The translations under genes and the position numbers were made by a program. A model generated the notes under the pieces. It made no database searches and had not been told where the DNA came from. It saw nothing but the letters and a program-made list of their open reading frames with translations. Positions 1 to 64,000 of a stretch of DNA of 64,000 nucleotides are shown here, in pieces; within the stretch, counting starts at the first letter, position 1; every line of letters begins with the position of its first letter. Source of the DNA: Podospora anserina (Eukaryota); NCBI GenBank assembly GCA_017654855.1, contig CM030336.1, positions 2,542,001-2,606,000 of the forward strand, in the 5' to 3' direction.

Positions 1-540
1 CTTAATTTACTTCCCTCCTTAATTCTTTATTAACTTTAATTATTATTATTAAAGGAAATAAGTACGTCGTAGGTTTTCCTTTTAATTATAAAAGGTTTAA
101 ACTAAGTAACGTATTAAATAATTTTTAATAATTAAATAAAATAGTAACCTCTTTTAGGTTCCGTACTCTTATAATAATAAATTCGCTACTCCTCTTTAGA
201 CCTATAATTACCTATCCCCTTACTTATAATTATTTAAGATTATTAATAATATATTTTTCGCTTAATTATATATTTAGTTTTATAGGATAGGAGTAAGCTC
301 CTAGAATTCTTTAAAAACGAAGGGAGGAAATCGTTAGGTTACTAATTATAATAATTCGATAGGGATAGAAATATACTTTAAGATCCGAAAAGTGAGGGTA
401 CTTTTCTCTTTAATTAAAGGAGAATAGATAAAGGAATAGTAAAATTATATCGTTTTCCTTTCTTTTTATTAAATAATATTTTTTTTTTTTTTTTTAATTT
501 ATAAAGGATTTTTTTCTTATATACGTATTTACTTACTAGT
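1..540. mobile_element. RIP-degraded repeat relic, family not identified
   Basis: Extremely AT-rich, TpA-rich, CpA/TpG-depleted and without ORFs, as expected after RIP. Confidence 0.5.
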
Positions 541-589
541 TTATAATAATTAAATGCGAAGGGAGGTTTGGTTTGGGGTGCGGCTATAG

Positions 590-933
590 GCCTAAAAATA
601 TAAGTAAGGAAGCAGGGCTTTTAGAGGACTTAGGGGTTCAGGGGTTATATATATAAACGGTCTACTTCGGACATTCTATTTTAAATAGGACATCGACTTT
701 TATTCTTTTCTTCGTATTTTGTGCCTTACACGCGTGCAGGCAATTCTGGCCCTCTGATCAGGCCAATCCGGTGCTTATTATATGGCCTGCGAGCCCATAG
801 TGTCTTTTCTTTATCCTACGTGAAGTGCGGCCTGCGAGCGAGTCACTGTCACGCAGGTGTGTTTATTCTGAGACTTGTTGAGGGTATATTTGTGGTGTTG
901 TGGTTGTTTTATGTGTTTTCTCACCATTTCAAT
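590..933. repeat. Possible LTR of a third family (boundaries uncertain)
   Basis: GC-richer island inside RIP'd DNA with a TATATATA box (~645-655), ending TTTCAATA (possible RIP'd TTTCAACA). No partner copy seen in the window. Confidence 0.3.
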
Positions 934-1187
934 ACTTAGGATAGAGTTATACCGTATTTCTTTTATAAAATATATATTATAAAAATATAGGTATATCTTT
1001 TAGTAACTTCGCGATTTTAATATTAACGACTTTCTTATTTTTCTAATATTTTTTTAATTTTTATATATAAGTTTTATAAATAATAATATTTTTTACGAAA
1101 TAGCGATCCTATACTTACCGTACTACCTCTTTAATATCGTTTACTTAATAGGTCCTTCCTATTATATAATATTATTATCTTTAGCGA

Positions 1188-1571
1188 TGTGACGAACCCC
1201 TATACAGAACCTCTAAAAGGGATACTGGTTAAAGGTAACTTCTGACAATTGGTTCGGTGCAGCTAAACAGTGCACAACAAGATGTCTTAATGTAAACACT
1301 AGATACCGTGAATACAAGCTTGAATTGCATACTGCGGAACTGTCTATCTACACCAGCTAGTTCCTCCGTATATATAGACCCTGTGCCAAGCCTGGCACTG
1401 TCCTGGATCGATTGACTCGACTATCGATCCTATCGATACTGTCCCTTTTGGGATTGACTCTTCTGGATCGATCCTCGATCCCAATGATCCTGCTCTAATT
1501 GGTCCTCGCTCCTGTATTAATGATTGGCCCGTGGTGCGCCCCGCGCCCCACTAAAGTGTTAAGCCGTGACA
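1188..1571 (-). repeat. Solo LTR (384 bp), crapaud-type, with 5-bp TSD AGCGA
   Basis: TGTGAC...GTGACA termini; AGCGA at 1183-1187 and 1572-1576; same subfamily as 62603-62986. Confidence 0.93.
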
Positions 1572-2863
1572 AGCGACCTCCGTAAGGATTTCTATAGTAA
1601 TTTATATTAATCGATCCTAAAATACCTATATTTAAAGGTCTCTTTTTTTATACTTTACTTTTAGCCTTTTTATTATTTCCCGTAGCCCTTAAAACTTTAC
1701 TTCCTTTTATTCGGCGTATTAATTAAAGTTTTTTTCGAAATTTATTATTTTACTTTACTAGTACCCGATAACTACGACTTCCATAACCTTCGGTCCCCTT
1801 AATATAATAATTATTATAATAACCTTTTTTTTTTTAAATTATTTAGGTATCCGGTAATCTTTTTTAAAGTATTTTACTTTACTATAATTATAATATTTAT
1901 AATTATTTTTACCCTAGCTTTAACCATACGGCTTTTATTACTATATAGCGTCGATATTTATAAGTCTCGAGTATATAGTACTAAAGTAGTTAATAGTTAG
2001 GTATTATTATTTATATTTATTATTAAAGCGGTAATTTCCGTAGTAACCCTGATTATTATAATTTCTCTTTTTTATACGATATTAAAATTATTTATTATTA
2101 ATTTATATAACTATAGTAATATATTTATTAATAGTATTAGGCTTTTCCTCTCTATATAATTCGTCCTTTATTTTTTCTTTAAAGCTATTATAAAAAGTCT
2201 ATATTAACCCTTTATCGTTAATTTCGTTATGTAAACTATCGATTTTAAATTAAGTAATGTCTTTCGTTATTAAATATATTTACCGTAAGTTCGCGAGTCT
2301 CTTTTATACGCACTTACCTTTATTATATTCTTTAAATATTTCCCTAAACTTTACCTCGAAAATTCGGTAGTTCCGAAAATACTAAATAATAATTTCCTTT
2401 TAATCCTCCGCTACTATTTCGTAATAATTATTAAAAATAGGTTTAAATTAAATAAAAGTTTTATCTTTAAGCCGGTAGTTATATATATTACTTTCGATTT
2501 TTTTATATTAAACTATTCTGGGTAGTAACGAAAGTAGGTTTTAAATTAAATTAAGAAACTTCTAAACTCTACCTTTCCGCCTCTATAGCGCTCCGGTACC
2601 GGAAACTTAATTACGTGTGTAGGCCTAGCCGCCGAAAAAGTAAGAACCTGCTCCTTAGTCTATTAAGCTTCGGCCTTAAGCTCTTTAACGCGATTAATAA
2701 ACTGTTAAGCTATAGTGACTTTAGACTTAGCGTTTACCGTAGAAGGTCCCTCGATAGTTAGGTTAGGCGGAACGCTTCCTATCTAAATATTTTTAGGTTA
2801 GGCTATAGTAATAAAAAAACGCTTTTAATTTATTTATAATAAAGTTAAAGTAAGTATGTAATG

Positions 2864-3258
2864 TATAACGAACCTCTATATAGAACTTCTAAAAGGGATA
2901 TTAATTAAAGGTTATTTTTAATAATTAGTTCGGTATAGTTAAATAATATATAATAAAATATTTTAATATAAATATAAAATATTATAAATATAAGCTTGAA
3001 TTATATATTGCGGAACTATTTATCTATACTAGTTAGTTTCTCTGTATATATAAACCTAGTGCTAAGTTTAGTACTGTCCTAGATCGATAGACTCGATTAT
3101 CGATCCTATCGATACCATCCCTTTTAGGATTAACTCCCCTAGATCGATCCTCGATTCTATTAATCCTATTTTAATTGGTCCGTGGTACGCCCCTCGCCCC
3201 ACCAAGTGTTATTGGTCCGTGGTGCGCCCCGCGCCCTACTAAGTGTCAAGCTGTAACA
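2864..3258 (-). repeat. 5' LTR of the truncated element, with an internal ~37-bp tandem duplication
   Basis: RIP'd homologue of 1188-1571; ATTGGTCCGTGGTRCGCCCC... occurs twice (~3174-3246). Confidence 0.85.
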
Positions 3259-3512
3259 CACTTACTTAATACTTTATTAGCCTTACGAAGCAAAGAGACT
3301 TCTATACGAAGGAGAGCCACTTAATATATTATAACCGTTATACTTTTAGTAAATTAGTTTACCGTAATTAATATTAAAGTTAGGGAATTATTTTAATAAT
3401 TAGTAATACGAGTTTTAATTAACGTTAATTATAAATTAATTTTTCGAAAGTTATATAGTATTTAGGAAACTTAAAATTATATAATACCGGGCCGTAAATT
3501 TAAAGGTATTAA
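3259..3512 (-). mobile_element. pogo/Fot1 transposase C-terminal fragment (RIP'd)
   Basis: Colinear homologue of ~61221-61475, which lies within a recognisable Fot1-type C-terminus. Confidence 0.75.
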
Positions 3513-3958
3513 TGTGACGAACCCCTGTACAGAACCTCTGAAAGGGATACTGGTTGAAGGTAACTTCTGACAATTAGTTCGGTGCAGCTAAATAGTGCAC
3601 AATAAGATATCTCGATATAAACATATAATACCGTAAATATAAGCTTAAATTATATACTACGGAACTATCTATCTACACTAGCTAGTTCCTCCGTATATAT
3701 AATCCTTATACCAAACCGTAATTAGTCTCCTAAGGCTACTAATCACTTCGGCTTAATCTATTTAATACCTTAATTACACTAATTACTTCTACTTAATCTA
3801 TTTAATACCCTAATTATATTAATTACTTTACTTAGTTTACTTAGTACCTTAATTATATTAATTACTTTACTTTTACTATAATTAATTCCCCTATACGTTC
3901 TCCCAATTAGCCTTTTATTCCCGTAGCCCTATAACCGTCTTATATTAAGATTATAATA
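3513..3958 (-). repeat. 3' LTR (446 bp), subfamily with TTAGTGCCCTRATTACACTRATYACT repeats
   Basis: Same length as and homologous to 9645-10090. Confidence 0.88.
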
Positions 3959-4061
3959 TAATATTTTTCCTTTTAGGCTAACGCCCCGATAGTTTAACTT
4001 ACTTATTTTTTTTATTAATAACCTTAAATAAGTTTTCCTCCTTTATTACTATCCTTCCGTA

Positions 4062-4660
4062 ATATTTAACCGCGTTAAAAAATCTACGCCGAAAGGTCCC
4101 TTAAATACCTTTCGCCGTTAGAATTTTATAGCTACTATTTTTATTTTCGGTAACGAAATACTTCCCTATTCTTCTTATAAGGCTTTTAATATCCCCGATT
4201 ACCGCACTTCCGAGCGCTCTTTTAAATATAATTACTATATATATTCCGGTCGCTTTAATTATAATATCCTAAGCTTTACTCCCGCGTTAATAGCCTTTTT
4301 ACGTTACTAAAAAAAGAAATTAAACGCCGATGAATAATAGGCTCGCATAGTTATATTATAAGCTATTTCGAAACTTTCGCGAATAAATACCTAGCGCCGT
4401 ACTTTAATTATTAAATTCCGTTACTTAGCCGTTTACGAGGAGCGGGTAATTAAGGATCTAAAGCGGGAAAAAGCGTAAGCTTTTTCCACCGTTAATCCTT
4501 TTTTAATTTTTTTCCCTTAATTAGGCTTCCGATATACTAGACTAGCCTAGTTAGTCTTTACCGGACGACTTATCTTTTAATCCTAGCGTAGCCGGTCCTT
4601 CCTTCCTCGCTATTTAAAATACCGTTAGCGGCGCGCCTTTCCTTTCTTAAAGTAATTAAG
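4062..4660 (+). pseudogene. RIP-erased antisense accessory ORF (six-Cys Zn-cluster-like motif plus coiled coil) in the Gypsy 3' region; end approximate
   Basis: One frame from 4062 to ~4520 has only TAA/TAG stops (possible CAA/CAG) and Tyr codons at C-x2-C-x7-C-x8-C-x2-C-x7-C spacing from 4167. Confidence 0.65.
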
Positions 4661-4749
4661 GCATATAGTATTACTTATATTTAATTTCCTTTATACTTTC
4701 TAACTTTATAATATAATATATAATACGTTAATTATTATATTAAAAACGT

Positions 4750-7700
4750 AGGTTCGATTCCTATTAAAGTTTTTAAGTTTCTATATTATCGTTATTTAAT
4801 AGTAATCCAGAGACTCGTTTCTTTTATTTAGATTTTAATCGGTTTAAATATCGTTAATGGCATTCCTTTTATTTATTTAAATAATTAAAATTTATTTTTA
4901 ATTTTTATAAATTATTTATAATTAAATACTTTAATTAATTAATTAAATATTTTAATTAATTTTTATTAAACTATAAATTTAATATTTTTTTTATATTATA
5001 CTTTTTTTTTTCGTTCTCCGTTACGGCCTATATATTTATTTTATTTATATATAATACGGGTTTTAAAAGTAAAATATAAAAAGTATATAATTATAAATAT
5101 ATTATATTAAATAACTTTAATTCGAATATCGTTTTTAAGATTTTCCTTTTAACCTTAAATAGGCTTACTTTTTTATAGTCTAGTTTTTTACTAAGTCTTT
5201 TAGTATGTAAATTACATATAGAAAGGAATATTATATCCCTCCCTTTAAAGTAAGGTCCCTCGAGCCTTTTAATATTATAGTATTTCCGTATCCTTTCCCT
5301 TATAAACTTTAATTTTTATTTAAATTTATTATAAAGTATATATAATTTATTTACTTTAATCTTAACTTTAAGTACTTTTATATTTAATTTTTACCGTAAA
5401 TTTACTTTATATTTAAAGTTTACGAAAAATAATATAACTTTAATCGTTTTAATTAATAATATATTATATATTAATTATATTATAAATAATAATTTAACTT
5501 AATCGTCTTACTCGAAATTAATATAATTCCGTAAATATTATTTTATAATTTAGTTAAGCCGTTCCGTTTAACCGTCCGTCTAAGGGTAGTAAGCCGAAGA
5601 TACTTTACTTATTACTCCGAGTTTTCGTTATTAATGCTTTTTAAAATTTAAATATAAATTAAATATTACGGTCCGTAATAATTTCTTTTAATTATATATA
5701 TATTAATATAATATACCGTAGTACTATATTTACTAATTATTTTACCGATTAAATTTATTTATAAAATAAAAAATATATTTATTTAATAAGTTTATTAACT
5801 ACCGTTAATATACTATTATATTTAACGCCGGTTACTATATTTTTTAATTTTAATAATTTAATAATAAAATTTATTATAATTAAACTTTATAATTATTTTA
5901 CTATTAATAATAACTTTAAAAATCCGTATAATTTATACTTTATAACCCTTAATTTTTTTATATATATAATATAATTAAATAATTTCTTTAACGTTATCCT
6001 TAATCTTTAATTAATTAAAGTATTATTTAATTTTTTTTATAGTTTTTACGATACCTATATATCCTCCGAACTTCGATCCGTAAATCTCTATTATTAATAT
6101 CGTTCTATTACCTAGCCTTACGTATACTCGATTTTTATACTATAATTTTCTTTAATTATTTTTTTAAATATTTTATAACTCTAATTTTTCCTATTAATAT
6201 TACTCCGTAATATCGTTACTTAACCTTCCTTAATATTTATTATTAAAAATAATTTATTTATAATATACTATATAATATTCTATCTATAACTAAAGTAAAT
6301 ACTTAAAAATACTTTTTAACATCTCTTTAAATAATAATAGCAACTCCCTAAATATATCCTTATAGTAGTCGGCTCGCCGGTTAAATACATTTACTTTAAC
6401 ATTTTCCGAACCCTTCTTATAATTAATTTAAAAATTAAATTCCGAAAAAAACTTTAATTATTATATTTACCGTACGTTAAAGACCTTTATAGTAATAAAG
6501 TATTATAGATTTTCATAATCTATATAAATCTATATTTTATAATTAATATTATTAAAATATAATTTCTATTCCTCGAATATTTTAATAATAATAAATAACT
6601 TTTTATTATAAATTAAATAATTTTAATATATTCCTTTTAATTTTTTCGAAAAGAAAATTATTAAATATAGTTTCCTATTATCGTTTTGCTATCCTAATTA
6701 GTTACCGATCGTATAGTTTAATATATTAACCTTAACCTTAAATAATTAATTAGGGTTTAATAATTTAAATACCGGATCCTTTAAAATAATTTCTTTTAGT
6801 TTTTAAAAGGCCTACTCTTTTTCCTACCCCTACCGGAACTCTACGTCCTTCTTAATTAAATAATTAAATAATCGTATAATTTTTATATATTTATAAATTT
6901 TAAAAATTATTTAACGTATATTTATAATTACGGTATAAATTAATCTTTAATTACCGTAATTTTCCTAAATTCTATACGAACCTTATTTAATAATATTAAA
7001 TATTTTAAATATATTATTTTTTATATACGGAACTCGCTTTTTTCTTTATTAATTAAAAATCTAACTTCGTATAGCGCGTCGAATATCTTTTATACGTATT
7101 ACTTATATTCCTTTAAAGTACGTAAGTAAATAAAAATATTATTAAAATAATATATTACTGTTTTATCGAGGTACTTCCGGATTATATAATTAACGAAAAA
7201 TTAAAATATTATAAATATATTAATTAGTTTAAATAGTATTATAAGATATTCGAAATAATTATAAAGTATATAAAATATTATTTTTTCTTTAATTTATATA
7301 TAAATATACCCGATAGGTATATTTAAATATATAAAGTATTATGCCCCTATTAATTAATTTTATAATTTAAATATTAATAATAATAAATAATTATTTTTTA
7401 TTATTTTATTATTTAATTAACGGTAATCTATATATAATTATAAATTACCGTCCTTCTTCGGTATAAAAAATATAAGGTATCCTATTAACGATATAAACTC
7501 CTTAATATATTTTTTTTTAAATTCTTATTTAAATACTTTTATAACTCTTTACTTTATTTATTATTAATATAATAAACTTTAAATAATTATAGTTTAATTC
7601 CTTTTTTTAATTTAATTTCGTAATCTTACGGTCCTTACTTTAGAAATCCCTTTAAATATTTAGCTATAAAGGTTAAATATCCTCGATATTTTACCGGTAT

Positions 7701-9590
7701 TACTTTTTTCTTACCTTTTTTTATATTATTATAATAAATATATTTATTAATCTCCGATATTTTTATTAACGTCGTTAATTTTATTTCTTCGATTTTACCG
7801 TTTATATTAATAAAATATATTATTATTTTTTAAGCTCCTTACGGTAGTACCGTAGAGGGTATTTATTCTATACTTTACTCTATACATACGCCTAATTTTT
7901 TATCGTTAATTAAATATTTCTAAAATTCTTTTAATTATAAATAATTATTATCCCTTTAATCAATATCTAAATTATAATCTTTATACTATAATTACTTTAA
8001 AATTATATCTTTCGAGGGTTCCATATTTATAATATCGAATATAATTAAAGTTATTTTTCCTTCGATTATAATATCTAGAAGTAATATTTCTCTATAAACC
8101 TTTTACGTCGGAAATAGTTTTTATATAACGATCTATTCCTTTTTTTTCTTTTATAATATCCTAACCTAATATACGAACTATAATAAAATTAGATTTATTT
8201 CTATACTTTTATTTATTAATATTATTATTTAAATATTTTTTTAATATATTATAATTTAAAAATATTTATTTTTCTTACCTCTTCCCTATATAATAGCGAC
8301 TTCGCTAACGAATATTAAATTATTATTCTATACCTTTATTTTATACCGATACTTTTAATAATATTATTTATAGTCCGTTAAAGATTACCGGCCCCCGCGA
8401 AAGGCCGTAAATTATTTCCTAAATAATTATATTATTTAAAAGCGTTTTCTTACTCCGGGTTATTTAATAATATAAAGTCTTTTAATTATACCCGCTTAAC
8501 CTCCTTTTATTTTCCGTTTTTAATATATTTAATATTTTTTATATATATATTTAATAATAGTTCTTTGCTTTACCTTATTAATACCTAATAATTATAACCT
8601 TTATAACTTTCGGTCCTTTTAATATAATAATTACTATAATCTTTTTTTTTATCCGAATTACTTAAGTACCTTATAATCCTTCTTAAAATATCTTACTTTA
8701 CTATAATCAAAATATTTAAAATTATTTTTACTTTAATTTTACGGCCTTTATTATTAAATAATATTAATTTTTATAGGCCTTACGTATATAGTTCCCGAAA
8801 CGTAAATCCTATACGGCCGTTTTTTCCTTTTATTATTAAGGTAGTAAGGTCTTTATACGTATATACCTTTACGCTTTTTACGGCATTAATATTATCGATC
8901 GTTAATATAAATTACTATTATAATATATTTATTAATAATTTCCGGTCGCTCTATTCGATATAGTTTATCCTTAACTTCTTCCTTAAGCCCGTTATAAAAT
9001 AACTATATTAATCCTTTATCGTTAATTATATTACGGAATATATTTATTTTAAATACTATAGTATAGTTAGTAATAAATCGAATTTATTTAAAATTAATTA
9101 ATCGCTTTTAAATACACTTACCCTCGTTATACTCTCTAAATATTAATTTAATTTTCTTTTTAAAGTTTTTATACGACTTAAAATACTTCTTTATAATATC
9201 TTCCCTTTCGTCGTACTTATTATCGAAGTAATTTCTTAAAATCGGCTCGAATTAAGTAAATACTTTATTTTTAAGCCGGAATATAATATATATAACTTTA
9301 AATTCCTCGTTTAAGAAACGAAAAAAGTAGTACCGAAAATAAGCCTTAAGTTAGATTAGGAACCTTCTTAATTTTCCTTTTACACCTCTATAGTAATCGG
9401 GTACCTCAAGCTTAATACGCTCTCCCTCCCTACGTAAGGTACTAATTTTCTAATAAAGTATAGTGTTTTTTTATATAAGGGTATTATAAAAAAGGTATAA
9501 TTTATTTTTAAGCTTTTAAATATAAGCGAGAAGCTAGTCGATAGTAAACTAGGTCGAGCCTCCCTAAATATTAACGTTTCTGGCTATAGC
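4750..9590 (-). pseudogene. gag-pol (PR-RT-RH-IN) destroyed by RIP
   Basis: Motif order RT-RH-IN is Ty3/Gypsy type; many RIP stop codons. Confidence 0.85.
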
Positions 9591-9644
9591 GTTATTTTAA
9601 TACTTTTAGTTTATCCGTAATAGAGTTAAAGTAAGTATATAACG

Positions 9645-10090
9645 TGTGACGAACCCTTATACAAAACCTCTAAAAAGGATACGGATTAAAAATAATTTCT
9701 AATAATTAATTCGGTGTAATTAAATAGTATATAATAAAATATCTCAATATAAACATAAAATACTATAAATACAAGTTTAAATTATATACTACGGAACTAT
9801 TTATTTATATTAGCTAGTTCCTCCGTATATATAGTCCTTATGCTAAGCCGTGATTAGTCTCCTAAGGCCATTGATCACCTCGGCTTAGTCTACTTAGTGC
9901 CCTGATTACACTGATTACCTCTGCTTAGTTTGCTCAGTGCCCTAATTACACTGATCACTCTGCTTAGTCTGCTTAGTGCCCTAATCACACTAATTACTCT
10001 GCCTTTACTGTGATTGGCTCCCCTATACGTTCTCCCGATTAGCCCCTTATTTCCGTGGCCCCACAACCGTCTTGTACTAGGGTTATAACA
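9645..10090 (-). repeat. 5' LTR (446 bp)
   Basis: TGTGAC...TATAACA; the leader next to it is shared with 62987-63030. Confidence 0.9.
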
Positions 10091-10524
10091 TTTTGCCCTT
10101 AAGGAAAGAAAAAAAACTATTTTACAGGAGAGAGGAGAGGTCTATATATAAGCCTTCGTAGGCCTACTGTGGGTCCTGTAGGCCCTGGAAGCCCCTATAC
10201 TACTTTGAGGTATTTGGTAGGCTTAGGTGGGTCTAGTGTAGACTCACGGAAATCTATAGAACCTTCGGTAGCAGAGGTGCCCTGTAAATCACACTATTGT
10301 AGCAACTTACTACGTAAGCCTGTAGCCACTTTGGAAGGTTCTAGTATCCATTGACTAAGCCTTAAGCTACAGTAGCCCTGTAAGCCTTTAAGGGTCTCTT
10401 GTAAAGAATATTCTAAAGGGATCCAAGCCGGGAAGTTCCATTACTGCTTATAGCAGTACTGCCCACTGTAATATCAATCTGTAGGGCAATAAGTAGGGCA
10501 CTTAGTAGTACCCACACATTAATA
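10091..10524 (-). repeat. Truncated LTR of a second family
   Basis: Near-identical reverse complement of 61553-~61986; cut by the crapaud LTR at 10090. Confidence 0.85.
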
Positions 10525-22889: not shown

Positions 22890-25800
22890 TCATACAGCCA
22901 ACCCAACCGGCACCCCACCCAATCCCTCCCCAACCCCAGGCGAATCCAGCATCAACTTCCCGGGCAACTCGAACCTCTGTTCTTTCACAGGCTTCCACTC
23001 CTTCTTCCTCCCAACCCCCCTTCCCAAGCCAGGTGCCGGCAAAATAGGTGTAACGGGCGACATAATCCCCTTTCCCACCCAGCCACTCCTCCTTCTTTCC
23101 TTCCTCCCTTTCCCCAACCTCTGCTCCTCCTCCTTCACCCTCAAAGCAGCAGCAGACAACCCCCCCAACTTCCTCAACACCCTCTCAAGCCTAAACCTAG
23201 CTCCATAAACAGGACTCATCAATCCTTTTGTCTTGGTCCCTGCCTTTGTATGCAAAGTGATAATCTCATCTGCATCATGAGTCCCGAGAAGTGAAGTCCA
23301 TCGTTTCCATAGGCGGAACTTCTTCGCGGAGAGGGCAAGGAAGAGCTCATTTTGAGGTAGGAAATAGCGGAAGTGTTGTGGTGACAACAGATGGAAGATA
23401 AGGTTGGAGACGGCGTATTGAAGGAAGGGGTAGGATGACGTGATTAGCTGGCGTTGGTTGGCAGTCGTCGAGAGGGGCCGCAGCGGAATGTTGAGGCTGA
23501 GAAAAGGGGCTGACTTGACGTTCGGGCTTGGTTTGGGATTTTGACTTAGACTCTCAAAGTCACGCATATTGAGGTAGGTCAGACAAGCTCGGAGGAAGGA
23601 GTAATGTGAGATATTGAGGAAGTCGGTCGTGGTTAGGTTGGCCGGGATGGTACTGTTGCCAGACGTGAGGCAAGTCAAGCCTCGGCCCGAGAGGAAGAAA
23701 GAGCGGACGGAGCAGTGCCGTGCCTGTACTCGTTGAAGGCCAAGAGAGTCGTTTCCATCCGACTTGACTTCAAGGAGACCAATGGAGCGGGTTCGTACCC
23801 ATCTGTGGAATTGACAGGGTGTGTCGGATGTTATCAGAGAATTCCGAAGTTGCCGGAGGTCCCGCGTCGAAAATGGGGCCCCGACATCGAGAGCCATCAA
23901 CGGCCCGAGACGCTTATAGTGCTCGAACTGGTTTGGGTCGGTGAGTCTGATTGCAATGAAGAGATCATTCAGACGCATCGGCTCGGAGGCAAGTATTACC
24001 CACTGAAAGAGGATCAATGCCTCAGCCCTTTCTTTCTCGTTCAGGGTGCTTAACATCCACTCATACAGCCCGTGCAAATCACCAGGAACCTCTTGCAGGG
24101 TGCACTCGATGAGCTCCTGAGTAGCGCCTTCTAGAATAGCCGCATTGACGATATTAACCACAATCTCAGCCCATAAAAAGACGCCTCCTGCTTTTCGACC
24201 AATCATCATGACTGTACGGTTGCGTTCCTCCCATTCTGCCATCAAGTTGAGACTGACAAAACGAAGGATATCGTCGGTGTTTCGGATGTGCATTGGGATG
24301 CCGATGGTATTATAAAGCTCGGTTTCGGGGTGGTAAGCACTGGTGACGCATATGCTGAAGTTGGAGTTATGTGCGAGACGGGACAGACGACTGATCACCT
24401 CTCCGACATACATCGACCCAGCCTCATCCGGTATCTCGACGAGGATGAAGGTTCGTCTTGTGGGGGTCTTGATTGGTTGGTCGATGTAAAAATCGGAAAA
24501 GAATGACAGAACTTGGGCGTCGTCGAAGGCCTCCGGGTCAGCTCGAGGTTGCCTGTAGAGTTCGAGTAATGCCGTCCGAAGACGCGGGTCCTGCAGAAAT
24601 AGCTGTCCCAAAAGACTACGACAGACACTCGCTGGGATGCTTGTATGGTGTGCTGTAATGCCGATAATGGATGCTCCAGCAGGGCCCCACTGTCGTCCAA
24701 GCCTCCTGCGTAGAGACGTGAGAAGGATGTTCTTGCCACACCCAGATTCGCCTCGTATCCAGAAGACCTTGTTCTTGTTTGGGCCACTTCGGTTGTGCCA
24801 TGTCTGAAAGTCGTACAGATCGTATAGCCAAAGGCAGGTTCCAGGATAGGATGCGGCCGGGAGGGTCTCGGCGTGAAAAATTGGGGGTGGAACGAGTGCC
24901 GCCAGGCAGTCGGTTTCTTCGCTATTTAGGACATGACGCTCCTTCAGGTTAGCTGGCAATAACTTGACATCAATCTGGAGGTGACTTACTCTTTCCTCTT
25001 CGTCCCGAACAAACTCAGCCAAGCAAGTTATCAAAGCTTGGTATCCCACATCTTCCATCGACCAAAACTTAGCAACGTCGTTATGCAAAGCCCCGATCGT
25101 TGTTGCCTTTTCTCGAGGGTCTCCGATGAAGCTTGCAAGTCGATGTACGGTCTGTGTGCATTTTTCAGGTCTCTGTCCTTCTTCGCCGGGAATTGGCGGT
25201 CACTTACTGCGGCAGCCCGCTCATCAGCATCTGCAAAGCTTGGAATAACAGACTCCTGGAATGTCTTGACCCTGAAGTTGAACTCGTTCCATTGCCTGAT
25301 AAACGATTGTCGTCCAAGCTCAATCTCAGCGCTGCTGCCACCACAAAGCTGTGGCAAAACAAGATCGTCCGGGTCAACAGAGAGGGTCACACTGCCCATA
25401 CTTGTCACAGCGTCTCCAAGTGATGCATGTTCCGTGGCGCGGTGAGGGCTAGCGAGGAAAACCACGGCGGATGTCGAGAAAAGGACATCTTTCAGAGGTC
25501 CGTCGCGTTCGATGTCGGCAAGGCGAAGGATCTACAGGAGTTAGCCAATAAAACATGACAAGCCAGAGAGACCCTTACTTCTTTTAGGATGATACCGCCA
25601 GTGGAATGAGCAACGAAGACAAGAGGACGCGCTTGCGCCCCAAACGCTGCCCGCGCAGTAGCCAGTTCAAACAAAAACTCGCTGGCATGCGCAAATATGT
25701 CGCCTTGTAGCCGGAGGGGCTTCTTGTCCACAACCAGGGTGTGGTAGCCCCACGTAAATATCCTGGCGTTTGGGCAGGATTGCGGTAAAAAGTCCAACGG

Positions 25801-60020: not shown

Positions 60021-60796
60021 TAATAACGAACCCCTATCCAGAGCCTCTGAAGGGATACTGGTTGAAGGCACTTCTGAACAATCCTGGTTCGGTACAGCTA
60101 AACAGTGTACGACAAATGGCTTGTCTCAATCACAACAGTCTAGATACCAACGATTATAACTTATATTATATATTGCGGAACTCTCTATCTATACCAGCTA
60201 GTTCCTCCGTATATATAGATCTAGGGACCGTAGATCGTTAACTTACAGATTGTCCTGGGTCCTCTCCTTATTGGCCAATACTGGACCGTGGGCCGTAAGT
60301 CGCGCCGCGGTCCCCGGTTGTCACAATCGTTGGTGGGAACCCAACGCACGGGGCGCGGGGCGCCCCTGGCCAGTCATTACGGACCAGTCGGAAGAGGAAC
60401 GAAAGGCTCATGGTGATCCCGGTGAGCGGAGCGACAGGATCACGGTGATCATGGTGAGCCTCAGGTGGAGGATGTGATCCGGATCACCGCTAGGGAACGC
60501 GATCCAGGTGATCCACAGGTACGGAGGAACTAGATAGCTTGTAGATAGTTCCGCAGTATGCAATTCACAGTTGTATTCACGGCATCTTGTGTTTACATCG
60601 AGACATCTTGTTGTGCACTGTTTAGCTGCACCGAACCAATTGTCAGAAGTTACCTTCAACCAGTATCCCTTTCAGAGGTTCTGTACAGGGGTTCGTCACA
60701 CCGGTCCTAATCGTATTGGTCCATTCTATCCATCTAGACCGTAAGCCCCGCTTAATGGTCCGGTCCAGTCCTAATTAATTCCTTACGTGGCCACTA
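60021..60796 (-). repeat. Older, diverged crapaud-related LTR split by a younger solo LTR (end uncertain)
   Basis: 60021-60215 matches the conserved LTR half, including GTTCCTCCGTATATATAG; the variable half is interrupted at CCGGT. Confidence 0.7.
60319..60700 (+). repeat. Un-RIP'd solo LTR (382 bp) with 5-bp TSD CCGGT
   Basis: TGTCACA...GTCACA; CCGGT at 60314-60318 and 60701-60705; CpA/TpG retained. Confidence 0.93.
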
Positions 60797-62179: not shown

Positions 62180-62602
62180 TAATAATTATTTATAATATAA
62201 TTAATATATAATATATTATTAATAGAAACGATTAAAATTATATTATTTTTTATAAACTTTAAATATAAGGTAGACCTATAGTAAGGATTTAGCGTTAAGG
62301 TACTTAAGGCTAGGGTTAAAGTAAATAAACTATATATACTTTATAATAAACATAAATAAAAACTAAAGTTTATAAAGGAAAAAATACAAAAATATTATAA
62401 TATTAAAAGGCTCGAGGGACCTCGCTTTAAGGGGGGAAATATAATATTCCTTTCCATACGCAATTTATATACTAAAAGACCTAATAAAAAGCTGAATTAT
62501 AGGAGAGTAAGCCTATTTAAGGTTAAAAAGAAAATCTTAAAGATAGTATTTACATTAAAACTATTTAATATAATATATTTAAAGTTATATACTTTATATA
62601 TT
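62180..62602 (+). mobile_element. Fragment of the crapaud-type integrase 3' region
   Basis: Reverse-complement homologue of ~5075-5490. Confidence 0.8.
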
Positions 62603-64000
62603 TGTCACGGCTTAACACTTTGGTGGGGCGCGGGGCGCACTACGGGCCAATCATTAGTACAGGAGCGAGGACCAATTAAAGCAAGATCATTGGGATCGAG
62701 GATCGATCCAGAAGAGTTAATCCCAAAAGGGATAGTATCGATAGGATCGATGGTCGAGTCAATTGATCCAGGATAGTGCCAGGCTTGGTACAGGGTCTAT
62801 ATATACGGAGGAACTGGCTAGTATAAATAAATAGTTCTATAGTATATAATTTAAGTTTATATTTATAGTATTTAGTATTTATATTAAAATATTTTATTAT
62901 ACACTATTTAATTATACCGAATTAATTATTAAAAATTACCTTTAACCAGTATCCCTTTTAAAGGTTCTGTATAGAGGTTCGTTATACGTTATATACTTAC
63001 TTTAACTCTATTACGGATAAATTAAAAACGTTTTTTTATTACTATAGCCTAACCCAAAAACGTTTAGATAAGAGGCGTCCCGCTTAGCCTAATTATCGAG
63101 GGACTTTCTACGGTAGACGCTAGGTCTAGGGTCACTACGGCTTAATAGTTTATTAATCGCGTTAAGGAGTTTAAAGCCGAAGCCTAATAAACTAGGGAGT
63201 AGGTTTTTACTCTCTTAGCGGCTAGGCCCACGTATATAACTAAGTTCCCGGCACCGGAGCGCTATAGAAGTAGAAAAGTAAAGCTTAAAGGTTTTTTAAT
63301 TTAGTTTAAAACCTATTTTCGTTATTACCCGGAATAGTTTAATATAGAGGAGTCGAAGGTAATATATATAATTACTTAGCTTAAGGATAAAACTTTTATT
63401 TAATTCAAACTTATTTTTAATAATTATTATAAAGTAATAACGGAGGATTAGAAGGAAATTATTATTTAATATTTTTAGAGCTACCGAACTTTTAAAGTAA
63501 AACTTAAAGAAATATTTAAGGAATATAATAAAGATAGACGCGCGTAAAAGAGGTTTGTAAACTTATAGTAAATATATTTAATAATAAAATACGTTATTTA
63601 GTTTAAAATTAATAATCTATATAACGAAATTAACGATAAAAGATTAATATAAACCTTTTATAATAACTTTAAGGAAAAAGTAAAAGACGAGTTATATAAG
63701 GAAGAGAGGTTTAATATTATTAATAAATATATTACTATAGTTATACGGATCGATAATAAATAATTTTAGCGTTATACGGAAAAGAGAAACTATAATAATT
63801 AAGGTTATTACGGAAATTATTACTTTAACGATAAACGTAAATAGTAATACCCGATTATTAATTATTCCGATATTATATATTCGGGACCTATAAATATTAA
63901 CGTTATATAGTAATAAAAACTATAAAGCTAGGGTTAAAGTAAAAATAATTATAAATATTTTAATTATAGTAAAGTAAAATATTTTAAAAAAAATTATTAA
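62603..64000 (+). mobile_element. Crapaud-type Gypsy element: 5' LTR (62603-62986) plus RIP'd gag, running off the window
   Basis: 384-bp LTR of the same subfamily as 1188-1571; internal sequence homologous to 2863-1860. Confidence 0.88.

Follow-up and report, generated by a model that had tools for sequence, protein, structure and literature searches.

The window analysed here is a 64,000-nucleotide (64-kb) stretch of Podospora anserina DNA, and it contains a Ty3/Gypsy element whose pol gene is read on the minus strand. In the interval bounded by the inner edge of the adjoining LTR at 3956 and by the last pol domains that can be recognised, at 4860 or beyond, the plus strand carries the remains of a further open reading frame (ORF). 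In coordinates of the window, the element is composed as follows.

3513..3956, minus strand: 3' LTR (in the orientation of the element), 444 bp, aligned with the 5' LTR
3957..4061, no strand: 105-bp spacer from the LTR to the start of the ORF, read from the sequence
4062..4659, plus strand: RIP-inactivated antisense accessory pseudogene (phmmer, tblastn and RIP-direction test; C-terminal tail in the next frame)
4860..5000, minus strand: chromodomain-like end of pol, a motif recognised by eye
5054..5237, minus strand: weak integrase C-terminal SH3 domain, Tf2-1-like (PF24626, E 0.0025, below the curated cut-off)
6436..6823, minus strand: RT-associated RNase H domain of pol (PF17919, E 1.9e-12; PF17917, E 6.1e-08)
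6901..7641, minus strand: reverse transcriptase (RT) region of pol (translation matches polyproteins; tblastn)
9645..10090, minus strand: 5' LTR, 446 bp, aligned with the 3' LTR

The two LTRs are identical in 356 of 446 alignment columns, and C/T or G/A transitions make up 86 of the 88 mismatches between them. A polypurine-tract-like run (about 3963-3977, minus strand) is situated directly upstream of the 3' LTR, within the spacer, and no target-site duplication is recognisable at the element ends. Two distant RT-bearing polyproteins, P0001 (E 3.5e-18) and P0002, were retrieved by a word-indexed search with the RT translation, and a Pfam search of the RIP-damaged pol translation returned no Chromo match. 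The coding strands are opposed, with RT, RNase H and SH3 domains on the minus strand and the protein homology described below on the plus strand. This copy confirms the original placement of the frame as antisense and situated between pol and the 3' LTR.

Four LTR copies in the window have about 200 bp in common up to a TATATATA run, beyond which they fall into two unlike types. The LTRs of the published crapaud family are given as 339-443 bp long, and their copies are described as sharing the 3' half while differing in the U3 (5') half before the TATA box (PMC10787394). At 444 and 446 bp, the LTRs examined here lie at the upper edge of that range, within 1-3 bp, in a copy that has indels. Judged by LTR length and U3 pattern, the element appears to be a crapaud-like Ty3/Gypsy chromovirus of the same family. 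Crapaud has been drawn with two ORFs only, gag and pol, and some of its copies are described as putatively active (PMC10787394). The main text of that paper mentions neither ‘antisense’ nor ‘zinc’, and the words ‘ORF’, ‘antisense’ and ‘domain’ do not occur in two of its supplement files.

The plus-strand translation starting at 4062 agrees letter for letter with the one quoted in the original prediction. Across the 139 codons of 4062-4478, the frame is interrupted by seven stops (TAG 4119, TAA 4308, TAA 4335, TAG 4338, TAA 4359, TAG 4392 and TAA 4476), all of them TAA or TAG as had been noted, with no TGA. It contains 11 Tyr codons, no Cys codon and no ATG, and begins with ATA at 4062. The other five frames over this interval hold 9-16 stops each, and every frame is rich in Tyr (6-15) and nearly devoid of Cys (0-2). 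Sixteen open runs of at least 62 codons occur in 1-10500, that of the antisense ORF among them, and between 6.5% and 20.5% of all 139-codon stretches, depending on the frame, hold seven stops or fewer. When 3961-4800 is shuffled with dinucleotides preserved, 625 of 2000 shuffles yield a run of at least 62 codons. The openness of the antisense frame here does not exceed chance expectation, and since the Tyr/Cys bias is likewise common to all frames, the frame alone proves nothing. RIP is saturated around the ORF, leaving 0-2 CpA and 0-1 TpG per 250 bp throughout 3751-4750, and a Pfam search of the RIP-damaged ORF translation gave no match. Loss of RIP has been reported within Podospora (bioRxiv 10.64898/2025.12.02.690432).

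It is homology to intact proteins that places the antisense ORF far above chance. With the stop-masked translation of the frame as query, phmmer was run exhaustively against 1.84 billion representative proteins and returned five matches at E<=1e-3 (best 4.1e-21, next 2.2e-15), and the intact proteins matched in this way are 83-200 amino acids (aa) long. A profile search of 6257 candidates identified 11 family proteins at E<=0.01. In tblastn comparisons with the window, 11 of 12 family proteins match it, all in the frame of the antisense ORF and between 4035 and 4517, and the 64 kb hold no match outside that interval. Closest of all is P0011 (211 aa), whose ungapped alignment to 4068-4499 has 81 of 144 residues identical (tblastn, E 2e-40). 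Named members come from three species, Podospora pseudopauciseta, Triangularia verruculosa and T. setosa, and several further variants that are 72-84% identical reside on short contigs. The family divides into two subgroups that are approximately 51-57% identical to each other. Searches for the relatives' DNA in metagenome, viral and genome contigs produced pattern matches, none of which was confirmed by tblastn. The ancestral product of the ORF belonged to this small family, which is known from Podospora and Triangularia and whose proteins are 133-222 aa long.

Intact relatives also reveal the direction of the damage in this copy. Changes in the C>T/G>A direction alone account for 52 of the 63 mismatches to P0011, and changes in the reverse direction for 3 of 63. 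Shuffled pairings, employed as a control, give a mean of 10.9 and a maximum of 23, and none of 5000 reaches 52. All six Cys residues of P0011 stand opposite TAT or TAC, Gln of P0011 stands opposite six of the seven stops, and Met1 of the relatives is opposite the ATA at 4062. In this copy, RIP has converted every Cys codon to Tyr, Gln or Trp codons to stops, and the ATG to ATA. The resulting pseudogene (4062-4659) carries 12 premature stops, one +1 frameshift near 4500-4512 and a terminal TAA at 4657-4659, and its ancestral product was about 200-211 aa long.

These findings bear directly on the ancestral protein that had been reconstructed from the letters of the locus. The predicted motif, EMLPCSSC-x7-C-x8-C-x2-C-x7-C, is borne by P0011 and nine other intact members, each with the spacing C-x2-C-x7-C-x8-C-x2-C-x7-C, and the relatives are open in this frame with Cys rather than Tyr at all six predicted positions. 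Both the proposed ATG start and the reading of the stops as former Gln codons (six of seven) agree with the relatives, and only the proposed N-terminus, MSDRV, needs correction, given that the relatives read MSNRV. The reconstruction was right because intact relatives in other fungi show a protein composed of six Cys and a long helix.

Family members share a layout with a basic N-terminus, six Cys, a helix of approximately 70 residues and an acidic Ser/Pro-rich tail, which maps onto the pseudogene as follows.

4062..4166, plus strand: N-terminal basic segment, with net charge +4 over 35 residues in P0011 and P0008
4167..4262, plus strand: six-Cys module, C-x2-C-x7-C-x8-C-x2-C-x7-C, from the family alignment
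4278..4475, plus strand: long helix/coiled-coil segment, the best conserved region in the family (alignment, AlphaFold2, heptads)
4476..4659, plus strand: acidic Ser/Pro-rich C-terminal tail, with the frameshift inside

The former Cys codons, now TAT or TAC, are found at 4167, 4176, 4200, 4227, 4236 and 4260, and the helix segment of this copy is broken by the stops at 4308, 4335, 4338, 4359 and 4392. Relative to the Triangularia homologues, the tail (4476-4659) has a gap of nine codons. In the family alignment the six Cys show almost no variation, 32 columns, mostly within the helix, show none at all, and the termini are variable. The long coiled coil that had been foreseen corresponds to a predicted helix of 71 residues (110-180 of P0004) with AlphaFold2 pLDDT values of 91-98, all above 90, and with hydrophobic residues at the heptad d positions (L, L, A, A, V, L, I, L). 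Mean pLDDT for the model is 61.9, with the long helix as its one confident part, and the Cys module is modelled at 43-59. A predicted homodimer built from two copies of P0004 residues 70-180 together with zinc scored 0.23, against a mark of 0.32, a value that speaks neither for pairing nor against it.

The six-Cys module resembles the Zn(2)-Cys(6) clusters of Gal4-type factors, which follow the pattern C-x2-C-x6-C-x5-12-C-x2-C-x6-8-C and in which basic residues between the second and third Cys make the DNA contacts. Like those factors (PF00172), the family is fungal and has six Cys in a 2+1+2+1 arrangement, joined through a short linker to a long predicted helix. Two differences set it apart. 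First, the whole family protein is only about 200 aa long and lacks the large regulatory domain. Second, the spacing departs from the textbook pattern by one extra residue in the C2-C3 loop, with the rest in agreement. This loop has seven residues (EANDLKD or EALNISD) and is acidic, whereas the textbook loop has six and is basic, and the family carries its basic residues in the C3-C4 loop instead.

Database comparisons give a divided answer to the same question. PF00172 is seen in one of ten members, with an E value of 2.3 that falls short of the gathering score, and P0003-P0007 do not match it at E<=10. When the family profile and the Cys module were each compared with PDB sequences, no zinc-cluster chain emerged at E<=10. 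A Foldseek structure search of the PDB, run with a model whose Cys module reaches a pLDDT of only 43-59, gave no match at E<=0.001. In the ESM Atlas, eight of ten neighbours of residues 28-140 among the matches listed belong to Zn(2)-C6/C6-factor or PF00172-rich clusters. Their TM scores by query extend to 0.66, and none of the neighbours passes the threshold set by the tool. The UniRef automatic name of P0003 is ‘Zn(2)-C6 fungal-type domain-containing protein’. A regular-expression scan of the 64-kb window for Zn(2)Cys(6) genes detected none. By sequence, the family falls outside Pfam Zn_clus. The original description of the product as ‘Zn-cluster-like’ may hold in view of the Cys pattern, the automatic name and the weak structural neighbours.

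Taken together, we consider the best overall explanation, and a probable one, to be that 4062-4659 is a dead, RIP-saturated copy of an antisense retrotransposon gene whose product would have served as a regulator. That Gypsy elements in other genomes also carry the gene antisense is supported indirectly. First, P0005 derives from a lightly RIP-mutated copy, since 13 of its 15 mismatches to P0010 are RIP-type, versus two in the reverse direction, and this damage indicates that at least one further source carries the gene as a repeat. Second, two other sources preserve the polypurine-tract side of the spacer upstream of the ORF. In RIP-aware comparisons, 3961-4008 agrees with the upstream in-frame extension of P0009 at 14 of 16 positions (0 of 1000 shuffles) and with that of P0004 at 11 of 16 (13 of 1000 shuffles).

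The alternative that survives best is that all or part of a host gene, for instance the N-terminal DNA-binding and dimerisation part of a host zinc-cluster factor, came by chance to lie inside a single element copy, entering by transduction or nested rearrangement without forming a standard part of the retrotransposon. In NCBI annotation the relatives appear as ordinary hypothetical genes, with a single gene in each of three species, the crapaud paper presents only gag and pol (PMC10787394), and self-BLAST reveals no second copy of 3961-4800 in the 64-kb window. Several other pieces of the element do recur there, but none of these fragments covers the ORF part. Against a stray host gene stand the RIP-type damage of P0005 and the upstream conservation of the spacer. 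The annotation is also patchy, confined to three named species rather than providing one orthologue per genome, and several diverged variants are found on short contigs. Moreover, RIP is as saturated at the ORF as in the rest of the element, and, as weak evidence, no longer fused relative was encountered among 8000 scored candidates of 390-2000 aa. We therefore regard a host origin as unlikely.

Less likely by a clear step is the possibility that the antisense RNA acts rather than the protein. A transcript from the 3' LTR would pair with the genomic RNA of the element, feeding silencing or controlling copy number, and the open frame would be secondary. The gene is indeed convergent with pol and overlaps the 3' untranslated region of the element, and in Botrytis, engineered sense and antisense retrotransposon RNA is reported to feed small-RNA production (PMC8365987). 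Yet the conservation is that of a protein, with nearly invariant Cys, 32 invariant columns centred on the helix and variable termini. An RNA function is also compatible with a protein role, such that both could hold. Finally, that there is no gene at all, but only a stretch left open by chance in RIP-mutated, AT-rich DNA or a shadow of the pol-strand frame, accords with the chance-level openness and with a fairly open in-register minus-strand frame (9 stops in 139 codons, with a 55-codon run at 4268-4104), but we rejected both versions as almost certainly wrong because they are contradicted by phmmer (E 4e-21 against 1.84 billion proteins), tblastn (E 2e-40) and the RIP-direction test (0 of 5000 shuffles), and intact relatives of 133-222 aa bear invariant Cys and the heptad pattern in the antisense-ORF frame.

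If the ORF is the relic of an antisense retrotransposon gene, as we favour, its architecture suggests how active copies might have worked. The gene would be transcribed backwards from the 3' LTR or from the 105-bp spacer, and the protein would enter the nucleus, bind zinc through its Cys module and pair through its long helix. Once there, it could regulate transcription as a small Gal4-like factor, with the LTR of its own element or host genes as targets, in a manner that we liken to the antisense bZIP protein HBZ of HTLV-1. The copy in this window would itself do nothing. The stretch has been found in sequencing runs (20 rows from six studies, with no RNA run listed), a record that says nothing about expression.

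A more specific proposal, which we put forward as speculation with the odds well against it, is that crapaud encodes on its antisense strand a minimal Gal4-like factor that binds the variable U3, tying the expression of each LTR subfamily to its own factor. The assignment of parts that belongs to this proposal, with a nuclear signal, a zinc module, a dimer helix and an acidic activation tail, is taken as a whole equally doubtful. If true, a U3-binding factor of this kind would be a fungal counterpart of retroviral HBZ/Tax logic, and would represent a driver of the unexplained U3 diversification in crapaud, the most abundant retrotransposon family of Podospora.

Even apart from its exact function, the gene is instructive in how it was concealed. 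Saturated RIP had masked it entirely, with 12 stops introduced and neither ATG nor Cys left, and it was recovered by direction-aware reading in combination with an exhaustive protein search, an approach that is applicable to RIP-mutated repeats generally. Its readable architecture suggests a testable role as a nuclear regulator that binds zinc and forms dimers, and it occurs in a model group that is amenable to genetics. Full-text literature searches yielded no relevant report of an antisense zinc-cluster gene carried by an LTR retrotransposon of fungi.

Several known systems place extra genes in the same position. One of these is brtn, reportedly described by Zhao et al. (2011, Virology 417:248). 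It is an extra antisense gene of the Boty-like Ty3/Gypsy elements of Botrytis cinerea and Sclerotinia (PMC8365987, PMC7264820, PMC4227169, PMC5987419), and in the accounts given there it resembles the present gene as a small additional ORF of a fungal chromodomain Gypsy element, lying antisense to gag-pol in the interval from pol to the 3' LTR. The hosts differ, being Leotiomycetes for brtn and Sordariales for the antisense family described here, and the likeness is one of position and orientation. Among the family members found, none is named brtn and none comes from Botrytis. The plant aORF-3R genes of maize Grande1, rice RIRE2, Silene Retand and Phaseolus PvRetro13 (PMC7264820) likewise share the position and orientation within Ty3/Gypsy elements, and are described as conserved among copies. 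They belong to plant and partly non-chromovirus lineages, whereas for the gene described here a layout of Cys module and long helix can be proposed. Among the antisense extra genes at LTR-retrotransposon 3' ends that are treated in the relevant passages of PMC7264820, none has an assigned function.

The HBZ gene of HTLV-1 is also a minus-strand gene that adjoins the 3' LTR of a reverse-transcribing element, and is described as being transcribed from that LTR to yield a small, dimerising, helix-based regulator that modulates LTR-driven transcription (PMC3736048, PMC6950816). The two proteins share no homology, HBZ being a bZIP protein of a human retrovirus and the present family combining six Cys with a helix in a fungal retrotransposon. 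As an analogy, in which transcription from the LTR is inferred for the fungal element, HBZ may nevertheless offer the best available picture of how this gene could have worked.

Read again, the plus-strand frame from 4062 matches exactly the translation quoted in the original prediction, which proposed that repeat-induced point mutation (RIP; C to T or G to A) conceals an antisense gene for a six-cysteine, coiled-coil protein within a Gypsy element. Over its 139 codons (4062-4478, +), this frame contains seven stops, all TAA or TAG (4119, 4308, 4335, 4338, 4359, 4392 and 4476), eleven Tyr codons, no Cys codon and no ATG, with ATA at 4062. The other five frames of the same span carry 9-16 stops each, and Tyr codons are common throughout (6-15). 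The window's first 10.5 kb contain sixteen open runs of at least 62 codons, and when 3961-4800 is shuffled with its dinucleotides preserved, 625 shuffles in 2000 yield a run of that length. Taken alone, the openness of the frame is a true observation that is statistically empty; since it stands at chance level, the case rests on checking the de-RIP inference against intact sequences. These 10.5 kb form an AT-rich block from which CpA and TpG have nearly disappeared (0-2 and 0-1, respectively, per 250 bp in 3751-4750), which amounts to saturated RIP.

Intact sequences were found with phmmer, the query being the stop-masked translation of 3963-4661 and the target a set of 1.84 billion representative proteins. 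At E<=1e-3 there were five matches, the top two at 4.1e-21 and 2.2e-15, and these are not RIP debris. A profile search (6257 candidates) yielded 11 proteins at E<=0.01, with family members that include P0011 (211 aa, Triangularia verruculosa), P0014 (T. setosa) and records from ENA, JGI and Logan. When 12 family proteins were compared with the whole window by tblastn, 11 matched, all within 4035-4517 and in the frame of 4062, and one, P0009, had no match at E<=1e-3. The P0011 match is ungapped over 4068-4499 (81/144 identities, E 2e-40). In the intact relatives the reading frame is open and the six positions hold Cys instead of Tyr; in the alignments their cysteines stand opposite window Tyr codons, and Gln residues stand opposite window stops.

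The direction of the differences is that of RIP. Among 63 mismatches between P0011 and the window, 52 can be reached from a codon for the P0011 residue by C-to-T or G-to-A changes alone and three by changes in the reverse direction, whereas shuffled pairings explain 10.9 on average and never more than 23 (0/5000 reach 52). All six P0011 cysteines fall on TAT or TAC (4167, 4176, 4200, 4227, 4236 and 4260), as expected if RIP had turned Cys into Tyr, and the ATA at 4062, predicted to be a former start, aligns with Met1. The proposal that the stops were once Gln holds for six of the seven, which face Gln in P0011, but not for 4338, which faces Lys. Beyond about 4500, the homology carries on in the following frame, where alignment to the Triangularia proteins opens a 9-codon gap. 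In this tail three P0011 residues (two Trp, one Gln) lie opposite stops, and the pseudogene frame terminates at TAA 4657-4659. We therefore place the pseudogene at 4062-4659 and count one frameshift and 12 premature stops in it. The intact homologues bear out both the coordinates and the reconstructed motif (..EMLPCSSC-x7-C-x8-C-x2-C-x7-C, then a long helix), so that the original observation is confirmed and its interpretation supported. The window copy is completely inactivated, a fossil without present function.

Two direct repeats, the LTRs, bound the surrounding element: 3513-3956 and 9645-10090 agree at 356/446 positions, and C/T or G/A transitions, the signature of RIP, account for 86 of their 88 mismatches. 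No target-site duplication is recognisable for the element. Its internal features are as follows.

7641-6901, minus strand: RT stretch (translation matches RT-bearing polyproteins)
6823-6436, minus strand: RT-associated RNase H (Pfam, stops read as X, E 1.9e-12)
5237-5054, minus strand: weak integrase SH3 (Pfam, stops read as X, E 0.0025, below the cut-off)
About 5000-4860, minus strand: chromodomain-like stretch (by eye only; no chromodomain detected there by Pfam)
Directly adjoining the 3513-3956 LTR, minus strand: purine-rich run resembling a polypurine tract (PPT)

Because the pol domains lie on the minus strand, gag-pol is on that strand and 3513-3956 is the 3' LTR; the pseudogene consequently sits, on the plus strand, in the roughly 900 bp that separate pol from this LTR, the antisense position that had been proposed. 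A 55-codon open run at 4104-4268 (-) lies in exact codon register with the pseudogene and shares its frame with the SH3/chromodomain-like part of pol; we interpret this run as the plus-strand gene's shadow.

Four LTR copies in the window have about 200 bp in common (the 3' half) up to a TATATATA run and then diverge into two types with different U3 sequences. In the published description of crapaud, from the Podospora anserina species complex, LTR length ranges over 339-443 bp and only the U3 preceding the TATA box varies (PMC10787394). Our element fits this description in LTR length and two-type U3 pattern, from which we infer the assignment. The U3 half of both LTRs (3747-3865 and 9879-9997) holds at least three tandem copies of a unit of about 40 nt (repeat family D2), and the right LTR, less mutated, retains one CGG-containing copy; these repeats could be candidate binding sites for a regulator. 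More fragments and solo LTRs of the element family (1188-3081, 60026-60218, 60520-60701, 62181-62603 and 62782-63997) flank a gene-rich island on both sides, 62181-62603 being an integrase-region piece, 84% identical and in reverse orientation. Other genes noticed in the window are listed here; the NPHP3_N and HET-domain ORFs, close together and with the next three genes nearby, are typical of fungal allorecognition-type genes.

22893-25199, minus strand: NPHP3_N (NACHT-type NTPase N-terminal) ORF
30668-32596, minus strand: HET-domain ORF
28645-30138: P450
34268-35338: terpene-synthase-like ORF
39421-40683: zinc-type dehydrogenase
41261-45964, minus strand: uninterrupted 1568-codon open frame in GC-normal DNA, with no Pfam match at E<=0.01

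Three indirect lines favour the view that the antisense gene is a regular gene of the element and not a passenger of the window copy. First, P0005 (83 aa, predicted from another source) and its nearest intact relative, P0010, disagree at 15 residues (13 RIP-type in the forward direction, two in reverse), and P0005 has Tyr at three Cys positions; such damage implies that the P0005 copy was repeated DNA. Second, in a RIP-aware comparison, in-frame upstream extensions of P0009 and of another member, P0004, match window 3961-4008, just inside the LTR and including the PPT complement, at 14/16 and 11/16 positions (reached by 0/1000 and 13/1000 shuffled peptides, respectively), suggesting the same neighbour beside the ORF elsewhere. 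Third, annotation of the family is patchy (three named species) and several variants, 72-84% identical, lie on short contigs, as is usual for repeats in genome assemblies and in annotations made with repeat masking. On the other side stands PMC10787394, where the legend to Fig. 2A has crapaud drawn with gag and pol only; 'antisense' and 'zinc' are absent from the main text of that paper, as are 'ORF', 'antisense' and 'domain' from two of its supplements. Four pattern scans of contig collections for the relatives' DNA gave no confirmed match, and no other element fragment within the 64-kb window covers the pseudogene part.

Across ten aligned intact members, the six cysteines are nearly invariant, and 32 columns are invariant, mostly past the Cys module, with both termini variable. 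Subgroups are only 51-57% identical to each other, and this domain-wise conservation looks like purifying selection on a protein. The layout is, in order:

N-terminus: basic, net +4 over 35 residues
Cys module: near-neutral; C2-C3 loop acidic, C3-C4 loop basic
Linker: short
Helix: first 50 residues basic
Tail: acidic, net -4 to -12; longer tails rich in Ser, Pro, Gly and Thr

Given the 10-sequence alignment, AlphaFold2 models residues 110-180 of P0004 as one helix (pLDDT 91-98), in the segment originally proposed as a long coiled coil, and gives the Cys module a pLDDT of 43-59. Along about nine heptads of the helix, one position reads L, L, A, A, V, L, I and L; the a/d heptad score is equalled by 18-159 of 2000 shuffles.

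Whether the module is a zinc cluster is less straightforward. The description 'Zn-cluster-like' agrees with the six-Cys pattern and with the UniRef name ('Zn(2)-C6 fungal-type domain-containing protein') of P0003, 178 aa long and predicted in Podospora pseudopauciseta, but Pfam PF00172 is found in one of ten members at E 2.3, and two PDB sequence searches returned no zinc-cluster chain at E<=10. Foldseek returned no PDB match at E<=0.001 for the predicted P0004 model, and the C2-C3 loop has one residue more than the Zn(2)Cys(6) textbook spacing. For residues 28-140, eight of the ten structural neighbours listed by ESM Atlas are Zn(2)-C6/C6-factor or PF00172-rich clusters (TM by query <=0.66, all below the threshold that the tool sets); in the ranking by features, clusters from Ascomycota come first (192-214 aa, 62-122 members, 0.92-0.93). 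The UniRef name and these neighbours are leads, not tests, and we file the family as zinc-cluster-like, not as a Zn(2)Cys(6) member.

Where the element has escaped mutation, the gene might be transcribed from an antisense promoter, located in the 3' LTR or in the 105-bp spacer beside it, as a short mRNA convergent with pol. Its product would be nuclear and zinc-binding, would pair through the long helix, and with its acidic tail could serve as a minimal Gal4-style regulator of LTR or host promoters. This specific mechanism is tentative when taken whole, and we lean modestly against its holding in every part. What makes the window fossil of interest is the family it brings to light, together with the proof that a relic can be decoded even where RIP is saturated. 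The searched literature contained no description of the protein family, its zinc-cluster-like plus helix architecture or its crapaud-like link; searches on zinc-cluster antisense genes in fungal LTR retrotransposons turned up no paper that brings these together, and 'Zn2Cys6' does not occur in the hits listed.

Additional antisense ORFs located after pol and before the 3' LTR are a kind of feature already known. For the proposed regulator, the closest working analogy would be HBZ of HTLV-1, a transcription factor that dimerises, is encoded antisense and is expressed from the 3' LTR (PMC3736048, PMC6950816). The closest structural precedents are the plant aORF-3R genes and brtn, from Boty-like Gypsy elements of Botrytis and Sclerotinia, which are likewise antisense and of unknown function (PMC8365987, PMC7264820), and which we liken to the window gene by arrangement, not by sequence.
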